Of a stretch of 64,000 bases of DNA, positions 4,769 through 28,402 are shown in pieces. The stretch lies in assembly GCF_000027125.1 (NCBI RefSeq), contig NC_017626.1. One strand, given 5' to 3'. Position 1 is the first letter of the stretch; every line of letters starts with the position of its first letter. The notes under the pieces were generated by a model. It worked only from the letters and a program-made list of their open reading frames with translations, was not told where the DNA came from and did not search any database. The translations under genes and the position numbers were made by a program. Origin of the DNA: Escherichia coli 042 (lineage in GTDB: Bacteria; Pseudomonadota; Gammaproteobacteria; Enterobacterales; Enterobacteriaceae).

Positions 4769-6082
4769 ATGAAAAATATAAAATTCAGCCTGGCCTGGCA
4801 GATTCTGTTTGCTATGGTGCTGGGCATTCTCCTGGGAAGCTACCTGCACTACCATAGCGACAGCCGCGACTGGCTGGTCGTCAATTTGCTCTCTCCGGCG
4901 GGTGATATCTTCATCCATCTGATCAAAATGATTGTTGTGCCGATTGTGATCTCCACGCTGGTGGTGGGTATCGCGGGTGTTGGTGATGCCAAACAGCTCG
5001 GGCGTATTGGCGCGAAAACCATTATTTACTTCGAGGTGATCACCACCGTCGCCATCATTTTGGGGATCACTCTGGCGAACGTCTTCCAGCCCGGTGCCGG
5101 GGTGGATATGTCGCAGCTGGCGACCGTCGATATCTCGAAATATCAGAGCACTACGGAAGCGGTACAAAGCAGTTCCCACGGCATTATGGGCACGATTTTG
5201 TCGCTGGTGCCGACGAACATTGTGGCGTCGATGGCGAAAGGCGAAATGCTGCCGATCATCTTCTTCTCGGTGCTGTTTGGTCTGGGGCTTTCCTCCCTGC
5301 CCGCGACGCATCGTGAACCGCTGGTGACCGTGTTCCGCTCCATCTCTGAAACCATGTTTAAAGTGACTCATATGGTGATGCGTTATGCGCCGGTGGGTGT
5401 GTTTGCGCTGATTGCGGTGACGGTGGCTAACTTTGGTTTCTCGTCTCTGTGGCCACTGGCGAAACTGGTGCTGCTGGTGCATTTCGCCATTCTGTTCTTC
5501 GCGCTGGTAGTGCTGGGAATTGTGGCGCGCCTGTGCGGGTTAAGCGTCTGGATCCTGATTCGTATTCTGAAAGATGAGCTGATTCTGGCGTACTCCACTG
5601 CCAGCTCTGAAAGCGTGCTGCCGCGAATTATTGAGAAGATGGAAGCCTACGGTGCACCGGCGTCGATCACCAGTTTCGTGGTGCCGACCGGTTACTCTTT
5701 TAACCTTGATGGTTCGACGCTGTATCAAAGTATTGCCGCTATTTTCATCGCTCAGCTGTATGGCATTGACCTGTCCATCTGGCAGGAAATCATTCTGGTA
5801 CTGACGCTGATGGTGACCTCGAAAGGGATTGCTGGAGTGCCGGGCGTGTCGTTTGTGGTGTTGCTGGCAACGCTGGGCAGCGTAGGGATCCCGCTGGAAG
5901 GTCTGGCGTTTATTGCCGGTGTTGACCGTATCCTCGACATGGCGCGTACTGCGCTGAACGTGGTGGGTAATGCGCTGGCGGTGCTGGTGATTGCCAAGTG
6001 GGAACACAAATTTGACCGTAAGAAAGCGCTGGCTTATGAGCGCGAAGTGCTGGGCAAATTTGATAAAACTGCGGATCAATAA
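4769..6082 (+). CDS. gltP: Glutamate/aspartate:proton symporter
   Basis: 437 aa polytopic membrane protein recognised as GltP (DAACS family); AGGA-containing RBS upstream. Confidence 0.95.
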   Translation: MKNIKFSLAWQILFAMVLGILLGSYLHYHSDSRDWLVVNLLSPAGDIFIHLIKMIVVPIVISTLVVGIAGVGDAKQLGRIGAKTIIYFEVITTVAIILGITLANVFQPGAGVDMSQLATVDISKYQSTTEAVQSSSHGIMGTILSLVPTNIVASMAKGEMLPIIFFSVLFGLGLSSLPATHREPLVTVFRSISETMFKVTHMVMRYAPVGVFALIAVTVANFGFSSLWPLAKLVLLVHFAILFFALVVLGIVARLCGLSVWILIRILKDELILAYSTASSESVLPRIIEKMEAYGAPASITSFVVPTGYSFNLDGSTLYQSIAAIFIAQLYGIDLSIWQEIILVLTLMVTSKGIAGVPGVSFVVLLATLGSVGIPLEGLAFIAGVDRILDMARTALNVVGNALAVLVIAKWEHKFDRKKALAYEREVLGKFDKTADQ

Positions 6083-6117
6083 TTGAAGATTGCCGGGGAT
6101 ATCCACCCGGCAATGTG

Positions 6118-6388
6118 TGGATGCCTGATGCGACGCTTGCCGCGTCTTATCAGGCCTACGCTAGACTGCGCAATAGCTTGATTTAGGGTGATTTTGTAGG
6201 TCGGATAAGGCGTTTACGCCGCATCCGACATCAATATCTGATGCGACGCTTACCGCGTCTTATCAGGCCTACGCCAGACTGCGCAATAGCCTGATTTAGC
6301 GTGATTTTGTAGGTCGGATAAGGCGTTTACGCCGCATCCGACATCAATGCCTGATGCGACGCTTGTCGCGTCTTATCAGGCCTACCTT
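6118..6388. repeat. REP/BIME cluster: about 2.3 tandem copies of a ~116-120 bp unit, each containing inverted REP palindromes
   Basis: Directly visible repetition of gatgcgacgcttgccgcgtcttatcaggcctac... and gtaggtcggataaggcgtttacgccgcatccgaca; REP consensus-like sequence between convergent gltP and yjcO. Confidence 0.85.
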
Positions 6389-7076
6389 AACCGTTGGTTA
6401 ATTTCTCAAACTCTTCACAACCGGTATCAAACCCTTCCATACAGCTCAGGTTCAGCCAGTGCAGCGCCTTTTGCTTGTTCTTCTCGATAAAACCTTCTTC
6501 ACCGTTTAAGAACATCATTCCCGCCCAGTACTCGGAATAACCGGTTCGGGAAATCGCAGAGCTGCGTTTGAAATACCAGGTTGCCTTGTCATCGTCGGCC
6601 TTAATGCCCACGCCGTTGGCGTAAATCAAACCAAGCAGCATTTGGGCATCGACGGCAGAGTCGTTCTCCAGATCTTCCGAAGCGTTTTCTAACAGCGAAA
6701 TCGCCTTTGGATAATCCGGTTTACCCGCTTGCGTATTTACCAGAATATGCGCCAGCGTTACTTCACCTTCTTTACTCCCCGCTTGCGCTGCTTTCTCTGC
6801 AAGAACTTTTGCTTGTGGATAGTCCAGACTGACCGGATTGGTGATTTTGATCTGCGCCAACAGCGCGCAGGCATCAGCATCACCGCTGTCGGCGGCTTTC
6901 TGTGCCCAATATTCGGCTTTGCTCAAATCGCCGGAGCTAAACCAGCTGTCGGCAAGAAAATATTGTGCGCGTCGGTCCCCGGCCTCTGCTGCCTTTAAAT
7001 ACTGGCTGCCAGGCTCGGAGTCGTTCGCGTGGGCAAAGAATGTCAAAAACAACATCAATGCGATAATTTTTTTCAT
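6387..7076 (-). CDS. yjcO: Sel1-repeat (TPR-like) periplasmic protein
   Basis: 229 aa with signal peptide (MKKIIALMLFLTFFAHA) and repeated Sel1-like motifs; position between gltP and fdhF. Confidence 0.85.
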   Translation of the reverse strand: MKKIIALMLFLTFFAHANDSEPGSQYLKAAEAGDRRAQYFLADSWFSSGDLSKAEYWAQKAADSGDADACALLAQIKITNPVSLDYPQAKVLAEKAAQAGSKEGEVTLAHILVNTQAGKPDYPKAISLLENASEDLENDSAVDAQMLLGLIYANGVGIKADDDKATWYFKRSSAISRTGYSEYWAGMMFLNGEEGFIEKNKQKALHWLNLSCMEGFDTGCEEFEKLTNG

Positions 7077-7169
7077 TTTGATAATACGATTGGGTAGGGA
7101 GTAACCAGTATAAAGAGTTCGAATGGATAAAAAAACAGCCTCCGGAAGGAGGCTGTAGAAAGGACTGTA

Positions 7170-9317
7170 TTACGCCAGTGCCGCTTCGCGCAGGCGAGTT
7201 TTCAACTTGTTGTACTCGTCAATCACGTACTGCTCGGCGGCGCGCTGATCGGCGATCGACTCGACGCGCACGGCGCAGTATTTGTATTCCGGCGTTTTCG
7301 TAATCGGGCTTAAGTTTTCGGTAACCAGCTCGTTACAGGCACCAATCCACCACTGGTAGGTCATATAAATCGCCCCTTTGTTCGGACGATCGCTGACCTG
7401 CGCACGGGTGATAATTTTGCCTTTACGCGAGTGCACCCAAACCAATGCCTCATCTTCAATACCCAGACGTTTGGCGTCTTCGGTATTGATTTGTGCGTAG
7501 CCAGGTTCATCAGCCAGCGCCGCCAGTGCCGCACAGTTACCGGTCATCGAACGGCAAGAGTAGTGACCAACTTCACGCACCGTTGACAGTACCATCGGAT
7601 ACTCGTCGGTGAGTTTGTCGATTGGCGCTACCCAGTCGCAGGTGAAGAACTGCGCCAGACCGTTCGGGGTATCAAACTTCTCTTTAAACAGATAAGAAGT
7701 CCCCTGATCGGCATCTGAAGTATCGCGGCAAGGCCACTGAATGAAGCCCAGTTCGCCCATTTTCTCGTAAGTCGCACCGTAGAAATCCGGGCACAGATGA
7801 CGCAACTCATCCCAGATCTCCTGGGTGTTGTTGTAGTGCATCGGATAACCCATACGAGTGGCAATTTCACTGATGATTTGCCAGTCCGTTTTCAGATCCC
7901 ATTTCGGTTCAACTGCTTTGAAGAAACGCTGGAAGCCACGGTCAGCCGCAGTAAACACGCCTTCATGCTCGCCCCACGACGTTGACGGTAAAATAACATC
8001 CGCCGCCGACGCGGTTTTGGTCATAAAGATGTCCTGAACGATAACCAGTTCCAGATCTTCAAAGGCTTTACGTACTGCCGACAGCTCCGCGTCAGTTTGC
8101 AGCGGATCTTCGCCCATAATGTACGCGGCACGCACTTCGCCATGCGCTGCGCGGTGCGGCAGCTCGCTGATGCGATAGCCGGTATGCGCTGGCAGGCTTT
8201 CCACGCCCCAGGCTTTGGCGAATTTCTCGCGGTTAGCCGGATCTTTCACGTACTGGTATCCCGGATACGTATCCGGCAGCGCGCCCATATCGCAGGCACC
8301 CTGCACGTTGTTCTGACCACGAACCGGGTTTACACCCGCATGCGGCTTACCGAGGTTACCGGTCAGCATCGCGAGGCTGGTCAGAGAACGCACGGTTTCC
8401 ACGCCCTGGTAGAACTGGGTTACACCCATGCCCCACAGGATGGCGGCGCTTTTCGCCTGGGCATACATCCGTGCCGCCTGACGAATCTCACTGGCGCTGA
8501 CGCCGGTGATATCTTCAACCGACTCCGGCGTGTAGCCTTCAACGATTTTACGATACTCTTCAAAGCCTTCTGTACGGGAAGCGACGAATGCTTTGTCGTA
8601 CAGATTTTCTTCAATAATGACATGGCCCATCGCATTCAACAGCGCGATGTTCGAGCCGTTTTTCAGTGCAATGTGGATGTCCGCAATGCGCGCGGTTTCA
8701 ATTTTGCGCGGATCGCAGACGATAATTTTCGCCCCGTTACGTTTAGCGTTAATTACGTGATTCGCCACGATTGGGTGGGAATCCGCCGGGTTGTACCCGA
8801 AAACGAACACTAAATCGGTATTATCAATTTCGTTAATAGCATTGCTCATTGCGCCATTACCGACCGATTGGTGCAGACCTGCAACCGATGGGCCGTGTCA
8901 GACACGAGCGCAGCAGTCAACGTTATTGGTACCAATAACGGCGCGCGCAAATTTTTGCATTACATAGTTGGTTTCGTTACCCGTACCACGCGAGGAGCCG
9001 GTCGTCTGGATGGCATCCGGACCGTACTTCTCTTTGATGGCGCTCAGGCGCTCGGCAACGTAATTCAGTGCCTCATCCCAGGAAACAGGTTCGAGTTTGC
9101 CGCCACGCTGGCGACGGATCATGGGGGTTTTCAGGCGCGGGGTCAGGATCTGGGTATCGTTAATGAAATCCCAGCCATAATAACCCTTCAGACACAGGGT
9201 ACCCTGGTTGGTTTTCCCCTGCGCTGCCTCCGCCCGGACGATTTTGCCGTTATCGACGACCAGGTTGATTTTGCAACCTGATGCGCAATAGGGGCAAACC
9301 GTGACGACTTTTTTCAT
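7170..9317 (-). CDS. fdhF: Formate dehydrogenase H (selenocysteine/molybdopterin enzyme); in-frame UGA at 8898-8900 decoded as Sec
   Basis: ORFs 8898..9317 and 7170..8849 are in the same frame, separated only by TGA (complement of tca at 8898-8900); together 715 codons; N-terminal Cys cluster (CPYCASGC). Confidence 0.95.
8850..8897 (-). other. SECIS mRNA stem-loop directing selenocysteine insertion at the fdhF UGA
   Basis: Immediately 3' of the UGA on the coding strand: CACGGCCCAUCGGUUGCAGGUCUGCACCAAUCGGUCGGUAAUGGCG, which I recognise as the fdhF SECIS hairpin. Confidence 0.85.
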
Positions 9318-9368
9318 CGGTCTCGCTCCAGTTAATCAAATCACGCATACGCGCTCTCGACTACAGTA

Positions 9369-9384
9369 TGCATCTTTTATGCCA
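9369..9384 (-). promoter_or_regulatory. Sigma-54 (-24/-12) promoter of fdhF
   Basis: Minus-strand sequence TGGCATAAAAGATGCA matches the TGGCAC-N5-TTGCA class with conserved GG and GC, about 55-70 bp upstream of the fdhF ATG. Confidence 0.8.
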
Positions 9385-9439
9385 CATTTTATTTGGGGTC
9401 ATTCCCTGATATTACGGGCACTATTTATTCAAAACTCTG

Positions 9440-9500
9440 ACGAAAAACAGGCTGTCGTCAGTTTTGACGTGACGAAACGAAATACCGCGTGACAGCCATC
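9440..9500 (-). promoter_or_regulatory. Putative FhlA upstream activating sequence for fdhF
   Basis: Cluster of repeated CGTCA/TGACG motifs (tttcgtcacgtcaaaactgacgacag) roughly 100 bp upstream of the sigma-54 promoter; exact site boundaries not resolved. Confidence 0.45.
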
Positions 9501-9514
9501 ACGCGGCAGACATT

Positions 9515-10981
9515 TTATTTTTTCTCGACGACGGGACTTGCCTGATACCCGCCGCCCAGCGATTTCATCAACTGAATGCTTTGGATCACCCGGCGGCTGT
9601 CCAGCATCAGTAATGACATCTCCTCGGCAAGCACTGGCAACCGGGCTTCGGTGGCCTGTAAGCGGCTGGTTAAGCCGCGTTGATAGGCGGCCTCGGCAGC
9701 GCGCTGGGTGAAGCGCGTGGCTTCCACGCGTTCAGCCTGCATCTCTCGCTCGTCGTTGAGCGTTTGCAGACGCGTGCCGTTGACGGCAACGTCGCGCACC
9801 GCATTCAGCACTGACTGGTTGTAACGTTCAATCATCATGTTGCTGGCGGCGCGAGTGCCTTCGAGATTGGCATTCAACCGTCCACCGTCAAACAGCGGCA
9901 ATTTCAGACCCGGGATAAAGTTGAACTGGCGACTGGTTTTTTTGAATAAGGTATCCAGGTGGATAGAATCCAGGCCGAAAAACGCTTTGATATCAAAGCT
10001 CGGATAGAACAGCGCCCGCGCGGAATCCACCTGATCTAATGACGCCTGAACATACCAGCGCATAGCTTGCAGATCCGGGCGTCTGGCGAGCAACTCATAA
10101 GAGAGTGTCGCCGGAATACCGGTCTGGACTCGTGGTAATGCCACCGGTTTGATCTCCGGCATATCGCTGGCTCCCGCGCCAATCAATGCGCGCAGAGATT
10201 CTCTCGTTTCGGTGATTTGCCCTTTGACGGCAGCAATTTGTTTATCGACCGCCAGAATCTGTGCCCGCGCGCCGTGGAAAGGCACTTGCGCTTCCAGACC
10301 GTGCGCCACTTTACTCTGGTGCGCTTTTACCGCGTAATCAATCACATCGCGAGTTTGTTCTAACAGATCGAGCATCTGATAGCTGGCCTGCATACTGTAA
10401 TAAAGCTGCGCTACGCCCGTGGTCAGCGATAGCTCTACTGCTGCGGTTTCTGCCAGCGCGGCATTATGCGCGCCAATGGCAGCGGCAACCGCTGAGCGAT
10501 GCACACCCCACAAATCGAGATCCAGTCCGGCAAACAAACCTACTGTGGCTTCCGTATAGTACGGCCCGTCCATACCCAGTGCTGGCGCATCCATCGCATA
10601 AGGGCTTAAAAAGCCGTTCGCCGAGACACGTTGGCGGTTGAGCATCCCTAACGCTGCGACCTGTAATTGTGAACCGGCATCTAACAAATCGGCCTGCGAC
10701 TGCGCTTTTTCTTCCCGCAGTTTCGCTTCGGCGAGGGTGTGTGAACCACTTAGCGTCCGTTGGATCAGCGCATCCAGCTGCGGGTCATTGAGTTGTTTCC
10801 ACCACTGCGCCTGCGGCCAGCCGGAGCTGGCAAGATGAATATCATCGGCCAGTTTGATTTGTTCCGGTTTGAGCTGTTGATGAGGTGCAGAATCCTTACG
10901 TACCAGGGCACAGCCGGAAATCAGCGTCGTGCTGCCGAGAATGCTGCACAACAGCAGACGTGAAAGTTGACGATTGATCAT
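9515..10981 (-). CDS. mdtP: Outer membrane factor (TolC-like) of the MdtNOP efflux system
   Basis: 488 aa with lipoprotein signal peptide (LISGCA); OMF family; overlaps mdtO. Confidence 0.9.
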   Translation of the reverse strand: MINRQLSRLLLCSILGSTTLISGCALVRKDSAPHQQLKPEQIKLADDIHLASSGWPQAQWWKQLNDPQLDALIQRTLSGSHTLAEAKLREEKAQSQADLLDAGSQLQVAALGMLNRQRVSANGFLSPYAMDAPALGMDGPYYTEATVGLFAGLDLDLWGVHRSAVAAAIGAHNAALAETAAVELSLTTGVAQLYYSMQASYQMLDLLEQTRDVIDYAVKAHQSKVAHGLEAQVPFHGARAQILAVDKQIAAVKGQITETRESLRALIGAGASDMPEIKPVALPRVQTGIPATLSYELLARRPDLQAMRWYVQASLDQVDSARALFYPSFDIKAFFGLDSIHLDTLFKKTSRQFNFIPGLKLPLFDGGRLNANLEGTRAASNMMIERYNQSVLNAVRDVAVNGTRLQTLNDEREMQAERVEATRFTQRAAEAAYQRGLTSRLQATEARLPVLAEEMSLLMLDSRRVIQSIQLMKSLGGGYQASPVVEKK

Positions 10982-13029
10982 TGCGTGGCTCCTTGTACCT
11001 GTTCCTTGGCGGGCGTTAATGCCGGGGCTGTCCAGTCTGGCAAGCGGGCGAAAAGCTGGCAGACGTGTTGTTCCTGTTTTAATAAGGTGGGCAGGATGGC
11101 CTGCGAGGCGGGTGTCTCTTCAAGCGTTATTTGAGGAGAACGGCTGAGTGCGGTTGCCAGACCGGCAGCGTATTTCTCAAGTGCGTCGGCAAACTGACCT
11201 GCTCTGTCCGGCTGTAGTGCGTTATCCAGCGCCTGCGCCGAGTTCCAGGTTGCATCCCAGGCGTGAAGAATATCGCGGCCCTGACGAATAACCGTTTGCG
11301 AACGTTCAATCAGTAGAGCGCGTTCTTCGCTGTCCAGTTGACGCTCCAGCGCCACGCGTTGGAACATCTCTTCACAGGCATTAAACGCCGCATGCAGACC
11401 TATACGAATTTGCAGATAAGTGCGCAGAGCCGTGACTTCCTGCTGGCGTGGGATCCGCATTACTTTACTCAACATACCCAGCGCGCCAGCCAGTTTTTGC
11501 GGCAGTGTGCGCGCTTCACTTTCAGGCCAGACAAAGGTGTAAATCACCGCGGACACCACGGTACCAATGATGATACCCAGGGCGCGATCGCGAATTTCCA
11601 CCAGGTCGTACACTGGGCCAAAAACGTTTTCGAGCGTGGCGAGCGCGAAGGTGACCACCATCTGTGTGCCGATATAAGAAGAGCGTTCAGAGCTGGTGGC
11701 AATCCATGCGCCCAACAGGAAAATCGGTGCCAGCACAAACAGCAATTCGACAATATTGTCCAGCCAGGGCATGACCAGTAACGTGAATAACAGCGCCAGA
11801 ATTGCACCGAAGAAGGCACCGCCAAAACGCAGCGCCATTTTCTGATACGACGAACCAACATTCGGGTTAGCGACGATCACGCAGGTCAGCATACAGGTGT
11901 GAATGCCTTCCCAGTCCACGCCGCTGTAGAAGGTGTAACAGATCAAACAGGCGAGCAGCGTTTTTACCGCGTAGCGCATATAGTCTGGATTGGTAAAAGC
12001 GTCGGCGACCATTGATGGCGGTTTGGTGGCGGGCGTTGGCGGCGTATTCGGGTCCATCTGACCCAGTTGTAACAACGTCTGGCAGATATTCTCCAGGTTA
12101 CATTCCCGTGCCGCCATCGCTTCACTTTCAGTGATCCGCCAGTCGCTTTGCCAGCACTGACCTTCGGCAATGGCATGCTGCAGTTTGTTGATTTCTGAGG
12201 CTAATTTTTGCCGAAATTCAATAATTGCCTGAGAATCAGCAAAAGAGGTGGGATCGTAGCGATTCAGCGTCGAGTAAATGTAGGTTACCGTAGCCACACA
12301 GCTTTGCCACCATGCGCTCTGAGTTCGCCAGTTGGCATCGTCCGCGAGGCAAAAGACATTGAGTTTTTGCAGCGCCAGCGCCTCTCTTTCAATCCGCGTT
12401 TCGGGTAGCGGTGTGAGGCTGTCCGTCAGGTGGCTAATGGCATCATCAAGCCGATCATTAAGCGCCTGATGCATCTGCGTGATAGCGCGGCTGGGAAACC
12501 ACAGCACGCCGATTAACGTCATCAATAACGTCGGATAGAGGCCAACAACGATACACCACAGGGTTAAGCGCACGACCACTTCCGGATAGTCGAGCATGGC
12601 GGGGAAGGTTTGCCCGTAAATAGCGACAATGGCGACGGCGAAAAAGACCAGCCCCAACCGATGGGTGCGCATCAAAAACATACAGCCCATCAGGATCGGC
12701 CCGGCGATGATCAATCGGATCAACGGTTCGCCGTATGACCATTTGTAGATCAAAAACAGGCTGCCGATCTCCAGCATCGTGGCGACCACAAACAAGATCG
12801 CGACAAATTTGGTGTAAAACGCGTTCGACTGAATACCGTAAAACAGTACTGCCAGTGATAACGCCACAAAAGGGATCTCAAAAGTCATTGAGATCAGAAT
12901 CACCAGCAGGCAGCCTACCCAGAGTTGCATAGTCTGCGGCACGCGGCCTGGTCGCCGCTCGCTTAACTCTTCATGAAAGAACGCCAGCAGCCTGACCACC
13001 GGTAATGGCAGGGAGTTGAGCGCGCTCAT
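10978..13029 (-). CDS. mdtO: FUSC-family inner membrane efflux component
   Basis: 683 aa with two hydrophobic domains separated by a soluble region; recognised as YjcQ/MdtO. Confidence 0.9.
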   Translation of the reverse strand: MSALNSLPLPVVRLLAFFHEELSERRPGRVPQTMQLWVGCLLVILISMTFEIPFVALSLAVLFYGIQSNAFYTKFVAILFVVATMLEIGSLFLIYKWSYGEPLIRLIIAGPILMGCMFLMRTHRLGLVFFAVAIVAIYGQTFPAMLDYPEVVVRLTLWCIVVGLYPTLLMTLIGVLWFPSRAITQMHQALNDRLDDAISHLTDSLTPLPETRIEREALALQKLNVFCLADDANWRTQSAWWQSCVATVTYIYSTLNRYDPTSFADSQAIIEFRQKLASEINKLQHAIAEGQCWQSDWRITESEAMAARECNLENICQTLLQLGQMDPNTPPTPATKPPSMVADAFTNPDYMRYAVKTLLACLICYTFYSGVDWEGIHTCMLTCVIVANPNVGSSYQKMALRFGGAFFGAILALLFTLLVMPWLDNIVELLFVLAPIFLLGAWIATSSERSSYIGTQMVVTFALATLENVFGPVYDLVEIRDRALGIIIGTVVSAVIYTFVWPESEARTLPQKLAGALGMLSKVMRIPRQQEVTALRTYLQIRIGLHAAFNACEEMFQRVALERQLDSEERALLIERSQTVIRQGRDILHAWDATWNSAQALDNALQPDRAGQFADALEKYAAGLATALSRSPQITLEETPASQAILPTLLKQEQHVCQLFARLPDWTAPALTPAKEQVQGATQ

Positions 13030-14060
13030 TATTGTGGCTCAAGATTAGCGACTGCCGAAGCGCCGATGCGGAACATTTCCGGGTCAGGTTTATCAACCAT
13101 GATTTTGACCGGAAAACGCTGGGCAACGCGGACCCAGTTAATAGAACGAGACACTTTCGGCAGGCCGCCCAGCACCAGGCCGCCGTCATCCGGTAGCACG
13201 CCGTAGCCAATCGAATCCACTTTACCCTCGAAGGTTTTGCCGCTGTCGCTCATCAGGCGAATCGTTGCGGGTGTACCTGAGCGAATATTTTTCAGATCGG
13301 TTTCGCGGAAGTTGGCGATCACGTACCAGTGACGAGTGTCGATTAGGGTAAAAATTGGGCGCATGGCAGAAGCAAATTGCCCGACGGAGGTTTTGAGGGA
13401 AATGACCCGGCCATCAAACGGCGCGCGAACGGTCGCCATTTCCAGATGCAGTTTGGTCAACGCAATATCCGCTTCCACTGCCGCACGCTGGGCAACTAAT
13501 GCATCCACGCCGCTGACGGCGCTGGCGGCTGACTGCGCCTGCAACAATACGGCATTAAGATCGGCTTCTGCGGCGCGCTGCGCGGTTCTCGCGCGGTCAA
13601 CATCTTCCGCTGAGACGAAACCTTCTTTCAGTAATGGCTCGGTGCGGCGTAATGTATCACTGGCCTGTTTCGCGGCGGCACGGGCTTTTTCTACCGTGGC
13701 ATTAACCGAGTCGGCACCAAACTGTTGTGCGTCAACGCTACGCTGGGTGAGCATAATTTGCTTATCCAGCGCCGCGAGGGAGGCTTCGGCTTTCGCCAGA
13801 TTGGCTTCGTACGGGCGCGGGTCGATGCGGAACAGCAAATCGCCCTGTTTCACCGCCTGGTTGTCGGTGACCGCCAGTTCTACAATGCGACCGCTGACTT
13901 CCGGCACCACATCAATGGTATCTGCTGACGCGTAAGCGTCATTAGTTGATGGCGCACTGTCTACGCGCCAGATAACGAAAACAAGGGCAACCAGCGCCAA
14001 CGCAACCACTAACAGAGCAGGGAATTTACTGCGAGGAGCTTTTTTCGGCGTACTTTCCAT
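13029..14060 (-). CDS. mdtN: HlyD-family membrane fusion protein
   Basis: 343 aa; N-terminal membrane anchor followed by coiled-coil region; 1-nt overlap with mdtO start. Confidence 0.9.
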   Translation of the reverse strand: MESTPKKAPRSKFPALLVVALALVALVFVIWRVDSAPSTNDAYASADTIDVVPEVSGRIVELAVTDNQAVKQGDLLFRIDPRPYEANLAKAEASLAALDKQIMLTQRSVDAQQFGADSVNATVEKARAAAKQASDTLRRTEPLLKEGFVSAEDVDRARTAQRAAEADLNAVLLQAQSAASAVSGVDALVAQRAAVEADIALTKLHLEMATVRAPFDGRVISLKTSVGQFASAMRPIFTLIDTRHWYVIANFRETDLKNIRSGTPATIRLMSDSGKTFEGKVDSIGYGVLPDDGGLVLGGLPKVSRSINWVRVAQRFPVKIMVDKPDPEMFRIGASAVANLEPQ

Positions 14061-14078
14061 GAGCGCGTCTCAAATAGA

Positions 14079-14354
14079 TTAGAAAAATGCCAGCCAGAAC
14101 AGCATGGCGTAGAGAGCAAAAAGGGCGGTATAAATAATTCCGACAAATGCCAGATTGATATTTGCCCGCTGAATAATTCGCCTCGTGATGAGCGTCAAAA
14201 TAAGGCTGGCAATGGCGCAGAAAAACCAGCTGGGATAATAAGCGCCGATCACCGGGATTGCCGGAGATAATGAGCATCCCGAAACCATGAAGACGGGAAT
14301 TATCCAGACTGTTTTTTTGAGTTGCATCGCCATGCGAGAGAGAACTGTTGGCAT
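14079..14354 (-). CDS. ytcA: Small lipoprotein YtcA
   Basis: Start chosen at MPTVLSRMAMQLKK... (91 aa) within the 107-aa track ORF; lipobox (MVSGC); 18 bp upstream of mdtN. Confidence 0.75.
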   Translation of the reverse strand: MPTVLSRMAMQLKKTVWIIPVFMVSGCSLSPAIPVIGAYYPSWFFCAIASLILTLITRRIIQRANINLAFVGIIYTALFALYAMLFWLAFF

Positions 14355-14526
14355 ATTAAATACATCCTGTCTGCTGCGAACAATATCTGTAGTGAATATC
14401 AATATCCATTGAAGGCGTCAGTATGGCTATTTTCTCGATGAATAAAAATAGCTTTATTCAGCCACCGCATTCATAACTTATATATTTTATGTATTAATTT
14501 GTTGTATGTATTTTTAAAATAAATGC

Positions 14527-14552
14527 TTTTGGGGGCTTAAGCGCCCCCAAAA
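14527..14552 (-). terminator. GC-rich hairpin, likely intrinsic terminator after yjcS
   Basis: Inverted repeat ttttgggggcttaagcgcccccaaaa flanked by A/T runs, 11 bp past the yjcS stop. Confidence 0.6.
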
Positions 14553-14562
14553 GTGAGTGGCA

Positions 14563-16548
14563 TTAATTTGGGGTTACGATATTCACCCACAAATCGAAAT
14601 TATCCAGACAGGCAATAATTTCTTCCAGTTTCGCGCCATTGCCAATAATTTTGGCTTTCTTCGCTTTTACCAGATCCGCCATTTTGGCTTGTGCGGTCAG
14701 CACGGCGTGAAGATCTTCACGGCTGATGTAGAAAGAGGCGTTGGCTTCAGGTTGCAGCGTTTTACGGTAGTTAAGCACGCTATCGTTCAGCGTCAGGTTG
14801 AGGTTATCGCCGTTGCTCATATTGAAGTTCAGGCTGATATTCTTACCTGCGGCTTTCGCGCTATCGAGGCGAACGGCCATAAAGTCGAATAGCATTTCGA
14901 CCGACATTCCGCGAAGGGTGTCCGGGAAACCGGTGGAGCTGTGGCTGAACTTATGTACCCCTTCGCGCAGCTCTTTCGCGCCGGTCAGGTAGAAACCGCG
15001 CCAGGTGGCGGACTCGGCCTGATAGCCCAGCTGTTCAAAGTTATTCGCTTGCAGATTCTTCGCGACCTGGTCACCAGGGTTGGCGGCAATCACCTGTTTC
15101 AGCAGTTCTGCCGACCAGCGGTAATCACCTTGCTTGTTCGCTTCTTGCGCCAGGTTGATGACACGGGCAGAACCGCCCAGCGCCTGCACGTAACGTTTAC
15201 CCATCTCCACCTGACCATACGGATGCAGGTTAGCCGGGTTACCGTCGTAATAGCCAAGATAGAAGTTATACACCGCGCGGGCGTTGTGGCTGACAGAACC
15301 GTAATAGCCGCGGCTGGCCCAGTTATTGGCAAGCGCAGGCGGCAGCTTAATCATGTCGCCGATTTCATTCATGGTGTAGCCCTGGTTTGCCAGGTGCAGG
15401 GTCTGGTCGTGAATGTACTTGATGGTATCGCGATATTTACCAATATAATCATTGATATGCTTATTGCCCCAGACCGGCCAGGTGTGCGGCATAAACAGTA
15501 CTTCCGCGTCATTACCCCACATATCCAGCGTTTCGTTCAGATACTCGGTCCACTTGCTGGTGTCGCGGGTTTTCGCGCCGCGCAGAGTGTAGAAGTTGTG
15601 CAGGGTATGCGTGGCGTTCTCGGCGGTACACAGGGCTTTCAGAGCCGGAATATAGAAGTGCATTTCGGCTGGCGCTTCGCTACCCGGAGTCATCAGGAAG
15701 TCAAATTCCAGGCCGTCGATAATCATCTTCTCGCCAGTTCTGACGATAGTTTTAGTCGGTGCAATAATGCTCGGGTCGCCCGTTGCCAGCGTCACGCCCA
15801 GGCCGTTGCCCACGTTGCCTTGCGCGTTGTGCGGCAGTAACAGACCGTAAGAGTAGAGCGCACGGCGGCTCATGATGTTACCCGCCAGCACGTTTTCGCT
15901 GATGGCTTCGTCCATAAAGCCTGCCGGAGCGATCACCTGCACTTTGCCGGATTTAACATCCGCTTCAGAGATAATGCCTTTCACACCGCCATAATGGTCG
16001 GCGTGGCTGTGGGTGTAAATCACAGCAACAATCGGTTTTTGCGGACGATGCTGGAAGTAAAGGTCAAGTGCGGCTTTTGCGGCAGGCGGCGTCACCAGCG
16101 GGTCGATAACAATAATGCCTTTTTCGCCTTCTACAAATGTAACGTTAGAGATATCTTGGCCGCGCACCTGATACATTTTATCGGTGACTTTGAACAGGCC
16201 AGAAATACCGTTGATTTGCGACTGACGCCACAGGCTGGGGTTTACGGTTTCCGGCGCAGCGGCATTAATATCAAATTTGTAATCGTCTGCGCGGTAGTAA
16301 ACTTTACCGTTCGCATCACGCAGAATACCTTCATCCAGCAGCGGGGCGATAAATCCACGCTGGGCATCGTCAAAATCTTGACGATCGCTAAACGGTAATG
16401 ATTTGGCGTAATTCTGATTAATCTGTTGGGTATATTGAGTGGCGGCTTTCGCTTCCTCTTTCGCGTTAGCGGTATTTACCATCATGCCGCTGGCGGCAGT
16501 TAACGCAATAACAATCCTGCTCAAACGGAATAACCGAGAGTTATTCAT
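14563..16548 (-). CDS. yjcS: Alkyl/aryl sulfatase, metallo-beta-lactamase fold
   Basis: Signal peptide; HSHADH zinc-binding motif ([11 protein letters not shown]); start taken at the second in-frame Met region (MNNSRLF...); track ORF is 665 aa. Confidence 0.9.
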
Positions 16549-16800
16549 ATAAATCTCCATTTATCATTTATGTCGTAAATATGTAGTCCATGCAAAATAC
16601 GTCATTTGAAGCTGGCGTTATCATAATTGGGAATTTGCGACTTTAATAAGTGGAAGTGTGAGCGGAGCGAGCCATTTTATTAGGCATTTGTGCTGAAGAG
16701 GGAAAAGTACGCGAATTTATTATCTCTGTAAATAATATGAGGTATTTTATATATTTATTATATATATTGTACTTCGGCAAATACTGAGCACAATTAATCA

Positions 16801-17118
16801 ATGCAACCGGTGTTTCTTTTTAAAAAACGTACCGGAGCAATGGGCGGTCATGTCGCTGGCACCGCAGGATTCTGTGTTGCTGTGCCAACCTTTTATTCAT
16901 GGTCAATGAGTGAGGGGATTGATAAAGAAACCAGGTCGTCAGAGCGCACTGATTATCCGCATTACGCCAGTGACGTTGCACTGGCTTTTGGTTCACGAGT
17001 GGTTGGCCTCGAACTGGCAAAAATGATTGTGGATGCGTGGCTGGGCGCGCAGTACGAATGCGGTCGTCATCAACAACGCGTGGAGGCGATTACGGCAATA
17101 GAGCAGCGGAAAAATTGA
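16801..17118 (+). pseudogene. rpiB: Degenerate remnant of ribose-5-phosphate isomerase B (rpiB) with internal deletion and non-homologous 5' part
   Basis: 105 aa ORF contains SSERTDYPHYAS...VALA joined directly to FGSRVVGLELAKMIVDAWLGAQYE.GRHQQRVEAITAIEQR, which I recall as RpiB residues about 36-53 and 107-149; the catalytic middle is absent. Confidence 0.6.
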
Positions 17119-17186
17119 GATTCATCCACTACTTGCATGGATGAGTAATGACTAATATGGATAGAGTTTCTTTTTGAGGTTGGCTA

Positions 17187-17516
17187 ATGAAACGCTTTCC
17201 GCTATTTCTTTTATTCACCCTGCTCACGCTGTCCACCGTTCCGGCCCAGGCCGATATTATCGACGACACCATTGGCAATATTCAGCAGGCGATTAACGAT
17301 GCTTATAACCCTGACCGTGGGCGAGACTATGAAGATTCGCGCGACGACAGCTGGCAGCGTGAAGTGAACGACGATCGGCGCAGACAATATGACGATCGCC
17401 GCCGCCAGTTTGAAGATCGCCGCAGGCAGCTGGACGATCGCCAGCGCCAGCTTGATCAGGAGCGTCGGCAACTGGAGGATGAAGAGCGGAGAATGGAAGA
17501 TGAGTATGGGCGGTGA
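17187..17516 (+). CDS. yjdP: Secreted charged-repeat protein YjdP
   Basis: 109 aa; signal peptide (MKRFPLFLLFTLLTLSTVPAQA); tandem DDRRRQ-type repeats; GAGG RBS upstream. Confidence 0.8.
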   Translation: MKRFPLFLLFTLLTLSTVPAQADIIDDTIGNIQQAINDAYNPDRGRDYEDSRDDSWQREVNDDRRRQYDDRRRQFEDRRRQLDDRQRQLDQERRQLEDEERRMEDEYGR

Positions 17517-17550
17517 TGTTGAGTCTAGAGCAGGCATCGCCCCTCACCCA

Positions 17551-18321
17551 TCACTCCACCCCAATCTCCACCCCAATCTCCATCCCATCAAACCCCGCCT
17601 CAAACCCCGACGGCAGTGCGTTTTCCATCAGCCACGCATCAAACTGGTGGCTGATATGGGTCAGAATCACCCGTGGCGAGCGGATAACCTGATTCAGCGC
17701 AAGCACGGTATTTAAATCACAGTGATTACGCGGTGCATCCTCGCGCGGCGGGTGGCTGCAATCAATCACCATTACCTGTGGCTGATTATTGCGTAAAAAT
17801 TTCAGCGTTTTTTCCGGCAGGCCTGCGGTGTCAGACAGCCACGCCACCCGGCTATGTGCCGTTTCCAGTAAATAGCCGAAAGTGAGTTTCGAATGATTGA
17901 GCGGCAGCGGCGTGACCTGTAATCCCTGCAAATCAAACACTACAAACGGTTCCACCGTGTGGCTGAAATCAAGCAGGCCCGGATGTTTAAACAGATCGTC
18001 GCAGCCCTGTTCATCCGGCGGGCCGTAGACCGGGATCGAATCGCCCACGCCCCAGCGCAGCGGAAACAGCCCCTGCACGTGATCCATATGGTAGTGCGTC
18101 AGCAAAAACTGCTGGAACGATCCGGGCGACCAGCGATCGGCGAGATCGTGCAGCCCGGCGTCGATCAGGGTGATCGCGTCGTTAAACTTCACGACGCCGC
18201 TGCATGGCTGGCGGCGATACTGTGGTGAGCGCCGCGCTCTGACGCAGGCCGCGCACTCGCAGCCCCATGCCGGAACGCCCTGTGCGCCGCCGGTGCCGGT
18301 GAGCGTGAGGGTCAGACTCAT
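17551..18321 (-). CDS. phnP: PhnP, phosphoribosyl 1,2-cyclic phosphate phosphodiesterase
   Basis: 256 aa metallo-beta-lactamase fold (HYHMDH); last gene of the phn operon; C-terminus carries a 12-bp tandem duplication. Confidence 0.9.
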
Positions 18322-19301: not shown

Positions 19302-20437
19302 CAGAACACCCTTTTACCCTGACGCCAGACGTGGTCGATATGAATGTGGTTGCCCTTGCGATGCGCCAGCACCAGGTCGGCGCGTTTGCCCTCGCCAATC
19401 ACCCCGCGATCCTGAAGATTAAGCGCCTGCGCCGGATTTTTAGTCACCAGCTTCACCGCCTGCGGCAGCGTAAAGCGGTTGCTCTCGTCATCGGCGACGC
19501 GAAATGCCGCATCGAGCAGGCTGGCGGGGTAGTAGTCGGAAGAGAGGATATCCAGCAGGCCAAGCTGCGCCAGTTCACTGGCCGCCACGTTGCCGGAGTG
19601 CGAACCGCCGCGCACGATATTCGGCGCGCCCATCAGCACGTTCATGCCATGCTTGCGCGAGGCTTCTGCCGCTTCGAACGTGGTGGGAAATTCGGCGATC
19701 ACGCTGCCAAGCTGGTGGGATTCGGCAACGTGCGCGTGCGTGGCGTCATCGTGGCTGGCGAGGGCAATGTGTCGCGCGCGGCACATTGCGGCGATGGTTT
19801 CGCGATTTGGCTGCGACCAGCGTGCGGCGAGCGCCAATTGCTCTTCTTCGTACTGCTGCATCTGCGCATCGGTGAGGGAATATTTGCCCTGATAATATTC
19901 GCGATACTTCTCGCGATTGGCGAACTGGCGCTGGCCTGGCGAGTGGTCCATCAGCGATACCAGCGTCACCGGTTCGCGCTGCACCAGTTTTTCAAACAGC
20001 GGCAACGTGGTGTGGTGCGGCAGTTCGCAGCGCAGGTGCAGGCGGTGCTCGGCGCGGTTGACGCCGCGTTTCTGCGTCTCTTCGATGGCGTTGATCATCT
20101 TCTCCAGATTCTCCAGCCGATCGCCGCCGTCGCGCACATCACCAATCGCCACGGCGTCCAGTACGGTGGTGATGCCGCTTGCCACCATCAGCGCGTCGTG
20201 GCTGCTCATCGCCGAATGGGCGGGCCAGTCGACTTTCGGGCGCGGGGTGAAGAATTTATCGAGGTTGTCGGTATGCAGCTCAATCAGGCCGGGTAGTAGC
20301 CAGCCACCTTCGCCGTCCATCGCTTCCGGCTGGCGGCTCTGGCTTTCGGCAAAGGCGCGAATTTCGCCATCCTGTACTTCCAGTGAACCGTGCACCACTT
20401 CGTTTTCCAGCACCAGTTTGACGTTATTGATAATCAT
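19301..20437 (-). CDS. phnM: PhnM, RPnTP diphosphatase (amidohydrolase fold)
   Basis: 378 aa; operon position; overlapping stop/start with neighbours. Confidence 0.9.
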
Positions 20438-21114
20438 GAAGAGGCTCCCATCGGGTGCAGGCGGTCGGCGACGTCATTGCGTACGGCTTCGTCATGGAAG
20501 ATACCGACGATGGCTGCGCCACGGGCTTTAGCTTCGAGAATCAGTTCCACCACCGCGGCGCTGTTTTTGGCGTCCAGCGAGGCGGTAGGTTCGTCGAGCA
20601 GCAGAATGGGGTAGTCGACGATAAAGCCACGGGCGATGTTGACGCGCTGCTGTTCGCCGCCGGAGAAGGTCGATGGTGCAAGGTGCCACAGGCGTTCAGG
20701 CACGTTCAGGCGCGTCAGTAATCGGGCGGCTTTAGCGGCGCAGGCTTCACGCGGTACGCCGGTATCGAGCAGAGGCTGCATCACCACTTCCAGTGCCGAA
20801 ATACGCGGGATGACGCGCAGAAACTGGCTCACCCAGCCGATGGTGGTTTTGCGGATCTCCACCACTTTGCGGGCTGGCGCGGTGACCAGGTCTACCCATT
20901 CCTCACCGTGTTTGATCTGGATTTGCCCTTCGTCGGGCAGATAGTTGGCGTACAGCGAGCGCAGCAGGGTTGATTTTCCGCTGCCGGAGTGGCCGTGAAG
21001 CACCACGCATTCGCCTGCGTTGACGGTGAGCGAGGCACGTTGTAAGACGGGCAGGCGCACGCCGTTTTGCTGGTGCAGGATGAAGGTTTTACTGACGTTT
21101 TGTACGTTAATCAT
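20434..21114 (-). CDS. phnL: PhnL, ATP-binding component of C-P lyase complex
   Basis: Start chosen at [11 protein letters not shown] (226 aa) inside the 240-aa track ORF; Walker [10 protein letters not shown]. Confidence 0.9.
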
Positions 21115-21157
21115 TTTTCGCCTCGTGGTTCGCATATTGGGGATCGGCGCGCGCATT

Positions 21158-21207
21158 GCCCCTCACCCTAGCCCTCTCCCCTCTGGGGAGAGGGCCGGGG
21201 TGAGGGG
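21158..21207. repeat. GC-rich imperfect palindromic element (boxC-like) between phnL and phnK
   Basis: cccctcaccctagccctctcccctctggggagagggccggggtgagggg forms nested inverted repeats; a related sequence recurs at 26472-26558. Confidence 0.7.
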
Positions 21208-21230
21208 ACCAGCGCGCACGGTGTTGCAAC

Positions 21231-21989
21231 TCAATTCTGCAAAACCGATGACACCAGCAGCTGGGTATACGGATGATGCGGGTCGTCGAGCACGCGGTCG
21301 GTTAACCCACTCTCCACTACTTGCCCCTGCTTCATCACCAGCAAACGGTCCGCCAGCAGGCGGGCGACGCCAAGATCGTGGGTAACAATCACTACCGCCA
21401 GGTTCAGCTCCACCACCAGGCCGCGCAGCAGGTCGAGCAGGCGCGCCTGCACCGACACATCCAGCCCGCCGGTTGGTTCGTCCATAAACACCAGCTTCGG
21501 ATGCGTCACCAGGTTGCGGGCAATCTGCAAACGCTGCTGCATGCCGCCGGAAAAGGTGGTTGGCAGGTCGTCGATCCGGTTAGCGGGAATCTCGACCTCT
21601 TCCAGCCACTTCTGCGCGGTGGCGCGAATATCGCCGTAATGACGCGCCCCGGTCGCCATCAGCCGCTCGCCGATATTGCCGCCTGCCGACACCTGGCGGC
21701 GCAGGCCGTCGAGCGGATGCTGATGCACCACGCCCCATTCGGTGCGCAGCAGGCGACGGCGATCGGCCTCGCTCATGCCATAGAGGGAACGGTTTTCATA
21801 GTGAATCTCCCCTTGCTGCGGCGTCAGACGCGCGGAAATTGATTTCAGCAGCGTGGTCTTCCCGGAGCCGGACTCCCCGACGATGCCCAGCACTTCCCCC
21901 GGCCATAAATCAAAAGAGACATCGCTAAAGCCTTTGCCCGGCGCGTAAAGGTGGGTCAGGTTATTGACCGAAAGTAAAGGTTGATTCAT
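21231..21989 (-). CDS. phnK: PhnK, ATP-binding component of C-P lyase complex
   Basis: Start chosen at MNQPLLSVNNL (252 aa); Walker A GESGSGKTT; ABC signature. Confidence 0.9.
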   Translation of the reverse strand: MNQPLLSVNNLTHLYAPGKGFSDVSFDLWPGEVLGIVGESGSGKTTLLKSISARLTPQQGEIHYENRSLYGMSEADRRRLLRTEWGVVHQHPLDGLRRQVSAGGNIGERLMATGARHYGDIRATAQKWLEEVEIPANRIDDLPTTFSGGMQQRLQIARNLVTHPKLVFMDEPTGGLDVSVQARLLDLLRGLVVELNLAVVIVTHDLGVARLLADRLLVMKQGQVVESGLTDRVLDDPHHPYTQLLVSSVLQN

Positions 21990-27613: not shown

Positions 27614-28402
27614 TCAGGCAGCTTTCGCGTTTTCTTCGACGCGGTTGATGCTGCGGTAGAGATGGTCAAAACGTTCGTTATCAAACTGTTGGCTGCTGCC
27701 GTCGTAGAAGACGTGCCCCTGGCGCAGGGCGACGATGCGTTCGCAGTAGCGCAGGGCGTAATCCACCTGATGCAGCGTGACGACCACGGTAATGCCGTCG
27801 TTCTGGTTAATGTCGCGCAGGGTGTCCATCACGATGCGCGCCGATTCCGGGTCCAGCGAGGCGATGGGTTCGTCCGCCAGAATCACCTTCGCCTGCTGCA
27901 TCAGCGCGCGGGCAATCGCCACACGCTGCTGCTGTCCGCCGGAGAGGGTGGAAACTCGCTGATGGGCAAAGTGCACCATGCCAACGCGGGTCAGCGCCTG
28001 TAACGCGCGCTGTTTCTGCTCGCGGGTGAAGTAGCTAAAACAGGTGCGCCAGAATGGCGTGCTGCCGAGCGCGCCAATCAGCACGTTCTCCAGTACGCTC
28101 AGGCGATTCACCAGGTTGAATTGTTGGAAGATGTAGCCGGTATTGGCGCGGCTTTTGCGGATATCGCGGGCCAGGCGGCCTTCGCGCTGGACTGTGCGGC
28201 CCAGCAGCTCGATATGGCTACCGGCAGATTTATCGCCGGTAATCAAACCGCTTAAGTGACGTAAAAGGGTGGATTTGCCGGAACCCGACGGCCCAAGCAG
28301 AGCCACCATTTCACCGTGATGAATGTTCAGATCAACCGCGTGCAGCGCCTGATGCTGATTGAAGGTTTTGGCGAGCTTCTCGACACGGATAATCGTTTGC
28401 AT
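27614..28402 (-). CDS. phnC: PhnC, phosphonate ABC transporter ATPase
   Basis: 262 aa; Walker [10 protein letters not shown]; ABC signature LSGGQQQR. Confidence 0.9.

Follow-up and report, generated by a model that had tools for sequence, protein, structure and literature searches.

The yjcS-yjdP interval and its two deletions

In Escherichia coli K-12 MG1655 the slot between yjcS and yjdP holds alsK-alsE-alsC-alsA-alsB-alsR-rpiB, that is, the als regulon (alsRBACEK together with rpiB/alsI) reportedly described by Kim et al. in 1997 and by Poulsen et al. in 1999. In the 64-kb stretch of DNA analysed here, referred to as the window, the same slot measures 638 bp as compared with about 7.3 kb in K-12, and alignment of both regions confirmed the original prediction that the als operon is missing between yjcS and yjdP. 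The description of the remaining interval as some 0.6 kb of AT-rich DNA followed by a 105-codon open reading frame (ORF) was also borne out, with a GC content of 34-37% over positions 16500-16900, in the left part of the interval. When window positions 16300-17400 were compared by blastn with the K-12 region (L001), four collinear blocks separated by two gaps were obtained (Table 1).

Table 1. Features of the yjcS-yjdP interval in the window and blastn blocks shared with the K-12 region (L001).
Feature	Window position	Strand	Remarks
yjcS (alkyl sulfatase), left flank	14563..16548	-	PGAP start at 16548, longest ORF to 16560; 95-97% identity to K-12
AT-rich DNA upstream of yjcS	16549..16772		Collinear with the K-12 yjcS-alsK intergenic region, L001 4599-4823
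78 bp specific to the relic haplotype	16773..16850		Single copy; filler or insertion
Diverged relic of the alsK-3' inverted repeat with alsK stop and last codon	16851..16902	antisense	79% to L001 4825-4876
Blurred junction of the large deletion	16903..16911		About 6.56 kb, K-12 L001 about 4877-11433
rpiB relic, codons 29-53	16912..16986	+	88% to K-12; G34E and W36R at conserved positions
CTGGCT, surviving copy of the 6-bp direct repeat	16981..16986	+	159 bp (RpiB residues 54-106) lost here
rpiB relic, codons 107-149 and stop	16987..17118	+	98% to K-12; G131C lineage-specific
105-codon ORF	16801..17118	+	Composite of 50 nt from the 78-bp filler, the alsK 3' flank in antisense and the two rpiB relics
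yjdP, right flank	17187..17516	+
blastn block 1: yjcS 5' end and upstream DNA	16300-16772		L001 4350-4823; 95%
blastn block 2: inverted repeat directly 3' of alsK, with alsK stop and last codon	16851-16902		L001 4825-4876; 79%
blastn block 3: rpiB codons 29-54	16911-16990		L001 11434-11513; 88%
blastn block 4: rpiB codon 105 onwards and yjdP	16981-17400		L001 11663-12082; 98%

Relative to the K-12 regulon, the window lacks the six als genes, the divergent promoter region, and rpiB codons 1-28 and 54-106. The single deletion event envisaged originally does not describe this structure, in which two deletions and 78 bp of extra DNA are found instead. The larger deletion extends from just inside the alsK 3' end to rpiB codon 28, the alsR-rpiB intergenic DNA with the rpiB promoter region being gone with it, and its junction might possibly reflect a (C)A/GTGG microhomology. 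The second one is an in-frame loss inside rpiB that falls exactly between two CTGGCT repeats (K-12 L001 11504-11509 and 11663-11668, 159 bp apart), in accordance with the deletion at a short repeat that had been proposed. The junction of this internal deletion also produces a terminator-like hairpin on the plus strand of window positions 16966-16985, GCCAGTGACGTTGCACTGGC then TTTTGGTT, probably as a chance by-product.

Short-word blastn searches with the 78-bp segment returned no counterpart in the K-12 als region, Nissle, the O157 island, the loci of Escherichia whittamii, the divergent 'E. coli' SCPM-O-B-8794, Citrobacter and Trabulsiella, or the rest of the window, the sole match being one of 13 nt that occurs by chance; no Rfam match to the segment was obtained either. 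Its being a leftover of an O157-type island was considered and rejected, both sequences being without similarity. The segment is present, with the same junctions, in other genomes carrying the relic.

Upon tblastn searches of the 64-kb window with the als proteins, no specific match was found for any of them, and K-12 RpiB gave a sole match at 16912-17115. AlsA aligned at only 22-30% identity with 20437-21989 and 27674-28390, which is probably the generic similarity of ABC ATPases, here to those of phn.

Between yjdP and phnP the window has a short spacer, with 18 bp (17550-17567) replacing about 118 bp of K-12 (L001 12232-12349), and PhnP has 256 instead of 252 amino acids, with an EIGVEIGVE repeat at its end derived from a 12-bp tandem repeat (phnP 3' end, 17551-17600). 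On the other side, the mdtP-mdtO-mdtN-ytcA-yjcS flank (window 9001-16772) shows just 96-97% identity to K-12, Nissle and O157, and another 10 kb of the window (adiA-melA) shows 98.3% identity to K-12, the surroundings of the slot being unusually polymorphic.

The 105-codon ORF and the loss of the RpiB catalytic parts

In the ORF product, RpiB 29-53 is represented by residues 38-62 and RpiB 107-149 by residues 63-105, and the product matches the E. coli RpiB structures PDB 1nn4 and 2vvr in two separate blocks. The original prediction of two non-contiguous RpiB blocks, the second spanning residues 107-149, thus stood, although the first one begins at residue 29 and not at 36; the break is located, as anticipated, between VALA and FGSRV. 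Similarly, the N-terminus is indeed not derived from RpiB, but it comprises 37 residues rather than 35; its codons lie in the 78-bp filler and in the alsK 3' flank, taken in antisense, and it is unrelated to RpiB 1-28. The ORF is homologous to rpiB, its 3' block having 98% and its 5' block 88% DNA identity to K-12, and its reading as an internally deleted rpiB remnant is correct, with the addition that the remnant is 5'-truncated as well, so that RpiB residues 1-28 and 54-106 are both missing.

The missing parts include Asp9, His10, Cys66, Thr68, His99 and Asn100, which are established as the catalytic residues of E. coli RpiB (structures 1NN4 and 2VVR), reportedly described by Zhang et al. 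in 2003 and Roos et al. in 2008. In the ORF, neither the N-terminal Asp9-His10 pair of the GCDHVG motif nor the Cys66/Thr68 of the ICGTGVG motif and the His99/Asn100 pair are found, the latter four falling within the deleted residues 54-106, and the full-length PF02502 domain (a model of about 138 positions) is not recovered, with matches being confined to model positions 26-50 (E=1.9) and 102-138 (E=3.8e-8) of 138. The C-terminal phosphate-binding block (Arg133, His134, Arg137) is retained in GRHQQRV. Beside it, the nearly invariant Gly131 is changed to Cys in the lineage of the window, and G34E and W36R affect positions conserved across Citrobacter, Enterobacter, Salmonella and others.

PGAP calls the ORF as a CDS and names it 'RpiB/LacA/LacB family sugar-phosphate isomerase', and the frame is intact in most carriers, its 90%-identity cluster containing 912 member sequences; as evidence of retention this is weak. 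These features, together with the near identity of the C-terminal 43 residues to RpiB, are what might favour a retained new gene in which the RpiB C-terminal helices are combined with a novel N-terminus. Nonetheless, this alternative is very unlikely. A simple scan of 16450-17250 detected no sigma-70-like site, and no Shine-Dalgarno sequence precedes the ATG of the ORF. Among seven relic alleles, a small sample, the polymorphic codons comprise nine non-synonymous (one of them a stop) and three synonymous ones, and non-conservative changes hit conserved positions. Moreover, frameshifted or truncated variants arose independently in other strains (P0003, P0006, P0009, P0012, P0017, P0018 and P0029), N-terminally replaced versions of the ORF occur in some other carriers, and the copies in 401651 and HH97 are flagged as pseudogenes by PGAP. 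Recombination involving the adjacent yjdP flank would explain the strong similarity of the 3' block just as well. Purifying selection is thus not apparent and disruptions are independent, as for a unitary pseudogene. Considering the loss of the catalytic blocks, the nonsynonymous-rich polymorphism and the disruptions in other carriers, the reading frame of 105 codons exists by chance and represents a non-functional pseudogene relic that is presumably not expressed.

The same relic has close relatives in characterized strains. E. coli W (ATCC 9637) shares the flanking genes and the 318-nt relic CDS with the window, the CDS product WP_001183287.1 differing from that of the window only by point differences (V39, D43, E58, G87 and R104 in W versus G39, E43, D58, C87 and K104), and CBG37279.1 of EAEC 042 (UniProt D3GTX0_ECO44, 105 aa) is identical to the product of the window ORF. 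E. coli W, without alsBACEK, does not catabolise allose (PMC3032704), and EAEC 042 is als-negative and allose-negative by Biolog, the loss having been called complete, rpiB included, in a report that leaves the relic unmentioned (PMC2808357).

K-12 genetics and these phenotypes of same-allele strains suggest that D-allose transport and catabolism would be absent in the present strain, and that RpiB activity would likewise be absent, with RpiA as the only ribose-5-phosphate isomerase. The relic haplotype explains an allose-negative phenotype previously known from strains carrying this allele, its import beyond annotation being small. In this latter respect, the PGAP product name is misleading, and metabolic models should not credit carriers with RpiB or allose-6-phosphate isomerase activity.

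Distribution among complete E. coli genomes

The occupancy of the locus was counted in 5,426 complete E. coli genomes. The als operon (6.1-kb query) was found in 3,404 of them (63%), the relic (208-bp junction-specific query) in 1,577 (29%; 1,569 near full length, with one copy each) and the O157:H7-type sugar island in 422 (8%), making the yjcS-yjdP slot a tidy three-state accessory locus; about 25 genomes displayed other states. Among the latter, EC291 (L005 9086-10094) carries an IS1-associated deletion, with IS1 at the truncated yjcS 5' end and all DNA beyond it absent as far as yjdM, including als/rpiB, yjdP and the phn operon. The absence of als is an ordinary presence/absence polymorphism that is already known; alsK was reported absent in 21/63 genomes (PMC5992433) and alsE present in 598/1,324 (PMC12216980).

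An intact als cassette elsewhere in the genome, which the original prediction had named as an observation against it, was not encountered at the population level. The 3,404 als and 1,577 relic genomes give a union of 4,979 with a concatenated relic and als query, meaning that just two genomes match both. Two als+ genomes with a partial relic match fit this number, namely 1919D3, whose als operon was inspected, and BHUCD02, in which the rpiB piece is joined to the als match; their equation with the overlap is by number, the overlapping genomes not being listed individually. Thus, none of the complete genomes with the relic junction carries als elsewhere, and these population data suggest that als, and likewise a second rpiB, are also absent outside the 64 kb in the genome analysed here.

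Rather than being confined to this strain, the feature is a common old haplotype. A stretch of 901 bp around the relic is covered at least 80% in 1,567 genomes, with AF39 (NZ_OZ547136.1) being 100% identical to the window over the whole 901 bp, and carriers come from varied hosts, sources and countries. AF39 was rejected as the source strain, as no genome in the collection exceeds 99.4% identity over another 10 kb of the window. Base-level alignment of SC418, SMN197SH3, 2013C_3277, EC23-1020, GE3 and 401651 revealed identical junctions and the same 78 bp in all six, indicating that the haplotype arose once. That the deletion happened recently and in this strain alone, or that it is an artefact of its assembly, is hence extremely improbable: nothing speaks for it beyond the strain-centred framing of the original prediction, while about 1,570 complete genomes share the junctions, three independent assemblies that are the closest records (LR134238.1, LR134246.1 and GCA_054777675.1) show only two mismatches with the window over 20 kb, and the divergence of relic alleles, which reaches about 4% in the relic DNA, points to its age.

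The O157:H7-type sugar island is an alternative occupant of the yjcS-yjdP interval that excludes als. Its left boundary lies within 4 bp of the point at which the window departs from K-12 collinearity (16768 versus 16772), but it shares no sequence with the interior of the relic, and it replaces everything up to the yjdP start with no rpiB fragment left. The island is about 9 kb long (L003 9440-18370 and L006, E. coli O157:H7 JEONG-1266; L022; L013, L017 and L024), is present in O157:H7, O55:H7 and O145:H28, and encodes a response regulator, a sugar kinase, a ketose-bisphosphate aldolase, a D-lyxose/D-mannose isomerase, an ABC transporter and a hybrid sensor kinase. A location next to yjdP is shared by the copies of Escherichia sp. 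E1V33 (97%) and of several Citrobacter species (about 80%), and the slot has thus had long-standing alternative occupants. There is a slim chance that the choice among als, relic and O157-type island is an old selected polymorphism across Escherichia and Citrobacter, or that the chimeric ORF is expressed as a new small protein.

Polarity, age and proposed history

In E. whittamii and SCPM-O-B-8794 the als-rpiB cluster is flanked by yjcS and yjdP, and in Citrobacter koseri it adjoins yjdP-phnP. The presence of als at this locus in the outgroups, together with the alsK and rpiB fragments of the relic, shows a loss and not a gain in K-12. It might be argued that the short state is ancestral and that the cluster was inserted in K-12-like strains, als being accessory in E. 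coli and the locus hosting also an alternative sugar island, but this can hardly be credited: only loss from a full cluster leaves an alsK 3' flank and two non-adjacent rpiB pieces in the relic, and the cluster occupies the same position in all three outgroups.

The window thus carries, with a probability of about 0.93, a common als-negative haplotype whose non-functional relic results from two deletions, is old, has a single origin and was inherited by the strain. As to the order and mechanism of the deletions, we infer that an ancestral als-rpiB cluster would have lost about 6.56 kb, from the last alsK codons to rpiB codon 28, and with them alsK, alsE, alsC, alsA, alsB and alsR, as well as the promoter region between alsR and rpiB and the 5' end of rpiB. 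The 159 bp inside rpiB would have been removed separately and in frame, by illegitimate recombination or slippage between the two CTGGCT repeats, and the 78 bp lie beside the large junction in the relic haplotype. From this one old origin, the haplotype has spread through about 29% of E. coli and was inherited by the present strain.

Relic alleles differ by 2-4% from the window within relic-specific DNA, and their divergence from als+ alleles is uneven, being larger in the small pieces (79% and 88% identity) than in the 3' rpiB piece (98%). The 80-bp rpiB 5' piece of the relic is 87.5% identical to both K-12 and Nissle, as compared with identities across that piece of 96% between K-12 and E. 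whittamii and of 92.5% between K-12 and SCPM-O-B-8794; some of the differences of the relic are states shared with outgroups (cgc, gaa), others being relic-specific and non-conservative. Simple equal decay does not explain this unevenness. An old or divergent source allele may account for it, in which the small internal pieces would have been shielded from recombination with als+ alleles and the 3' block on the yjdP side homogenised.

One variant, P0002, combines in 158 aa the relic N-terminus with an undeleted RpiB. It appears only in ENA metagenome assemblies and on short contigs, recurring in several of them, and its cluster has no NCBI-sourced member. In one such contig (L009, ENA ERZ507965 NODE_1799, with 2.8x coverage according to its name) the P0002-type gene is 15 bases away from where the retrieved sequence stops, and the switch from relic type to als+ type occurs inside a 24-mer common to both alleles. 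P0002 was rejected as a single-deletion intermediate, being a probable chimeric assembly via the shared 24-mer, and was given no use for ordering the deletions; it looks like a recurrent chimeric join in mixed-strain samples.

Finally, the full-length rpiB of the als+ genome 1919D3 (L007 8912-9361) contains about 60 bp that match the common relic allele exactly; they introduce G34D, W36R and Q49E and have K-12-identical sequence on either side. This relic-type patch indicates exchange between relic-type and intact alleles, and the W36R replacement may impair the RpiB of 1919D3.
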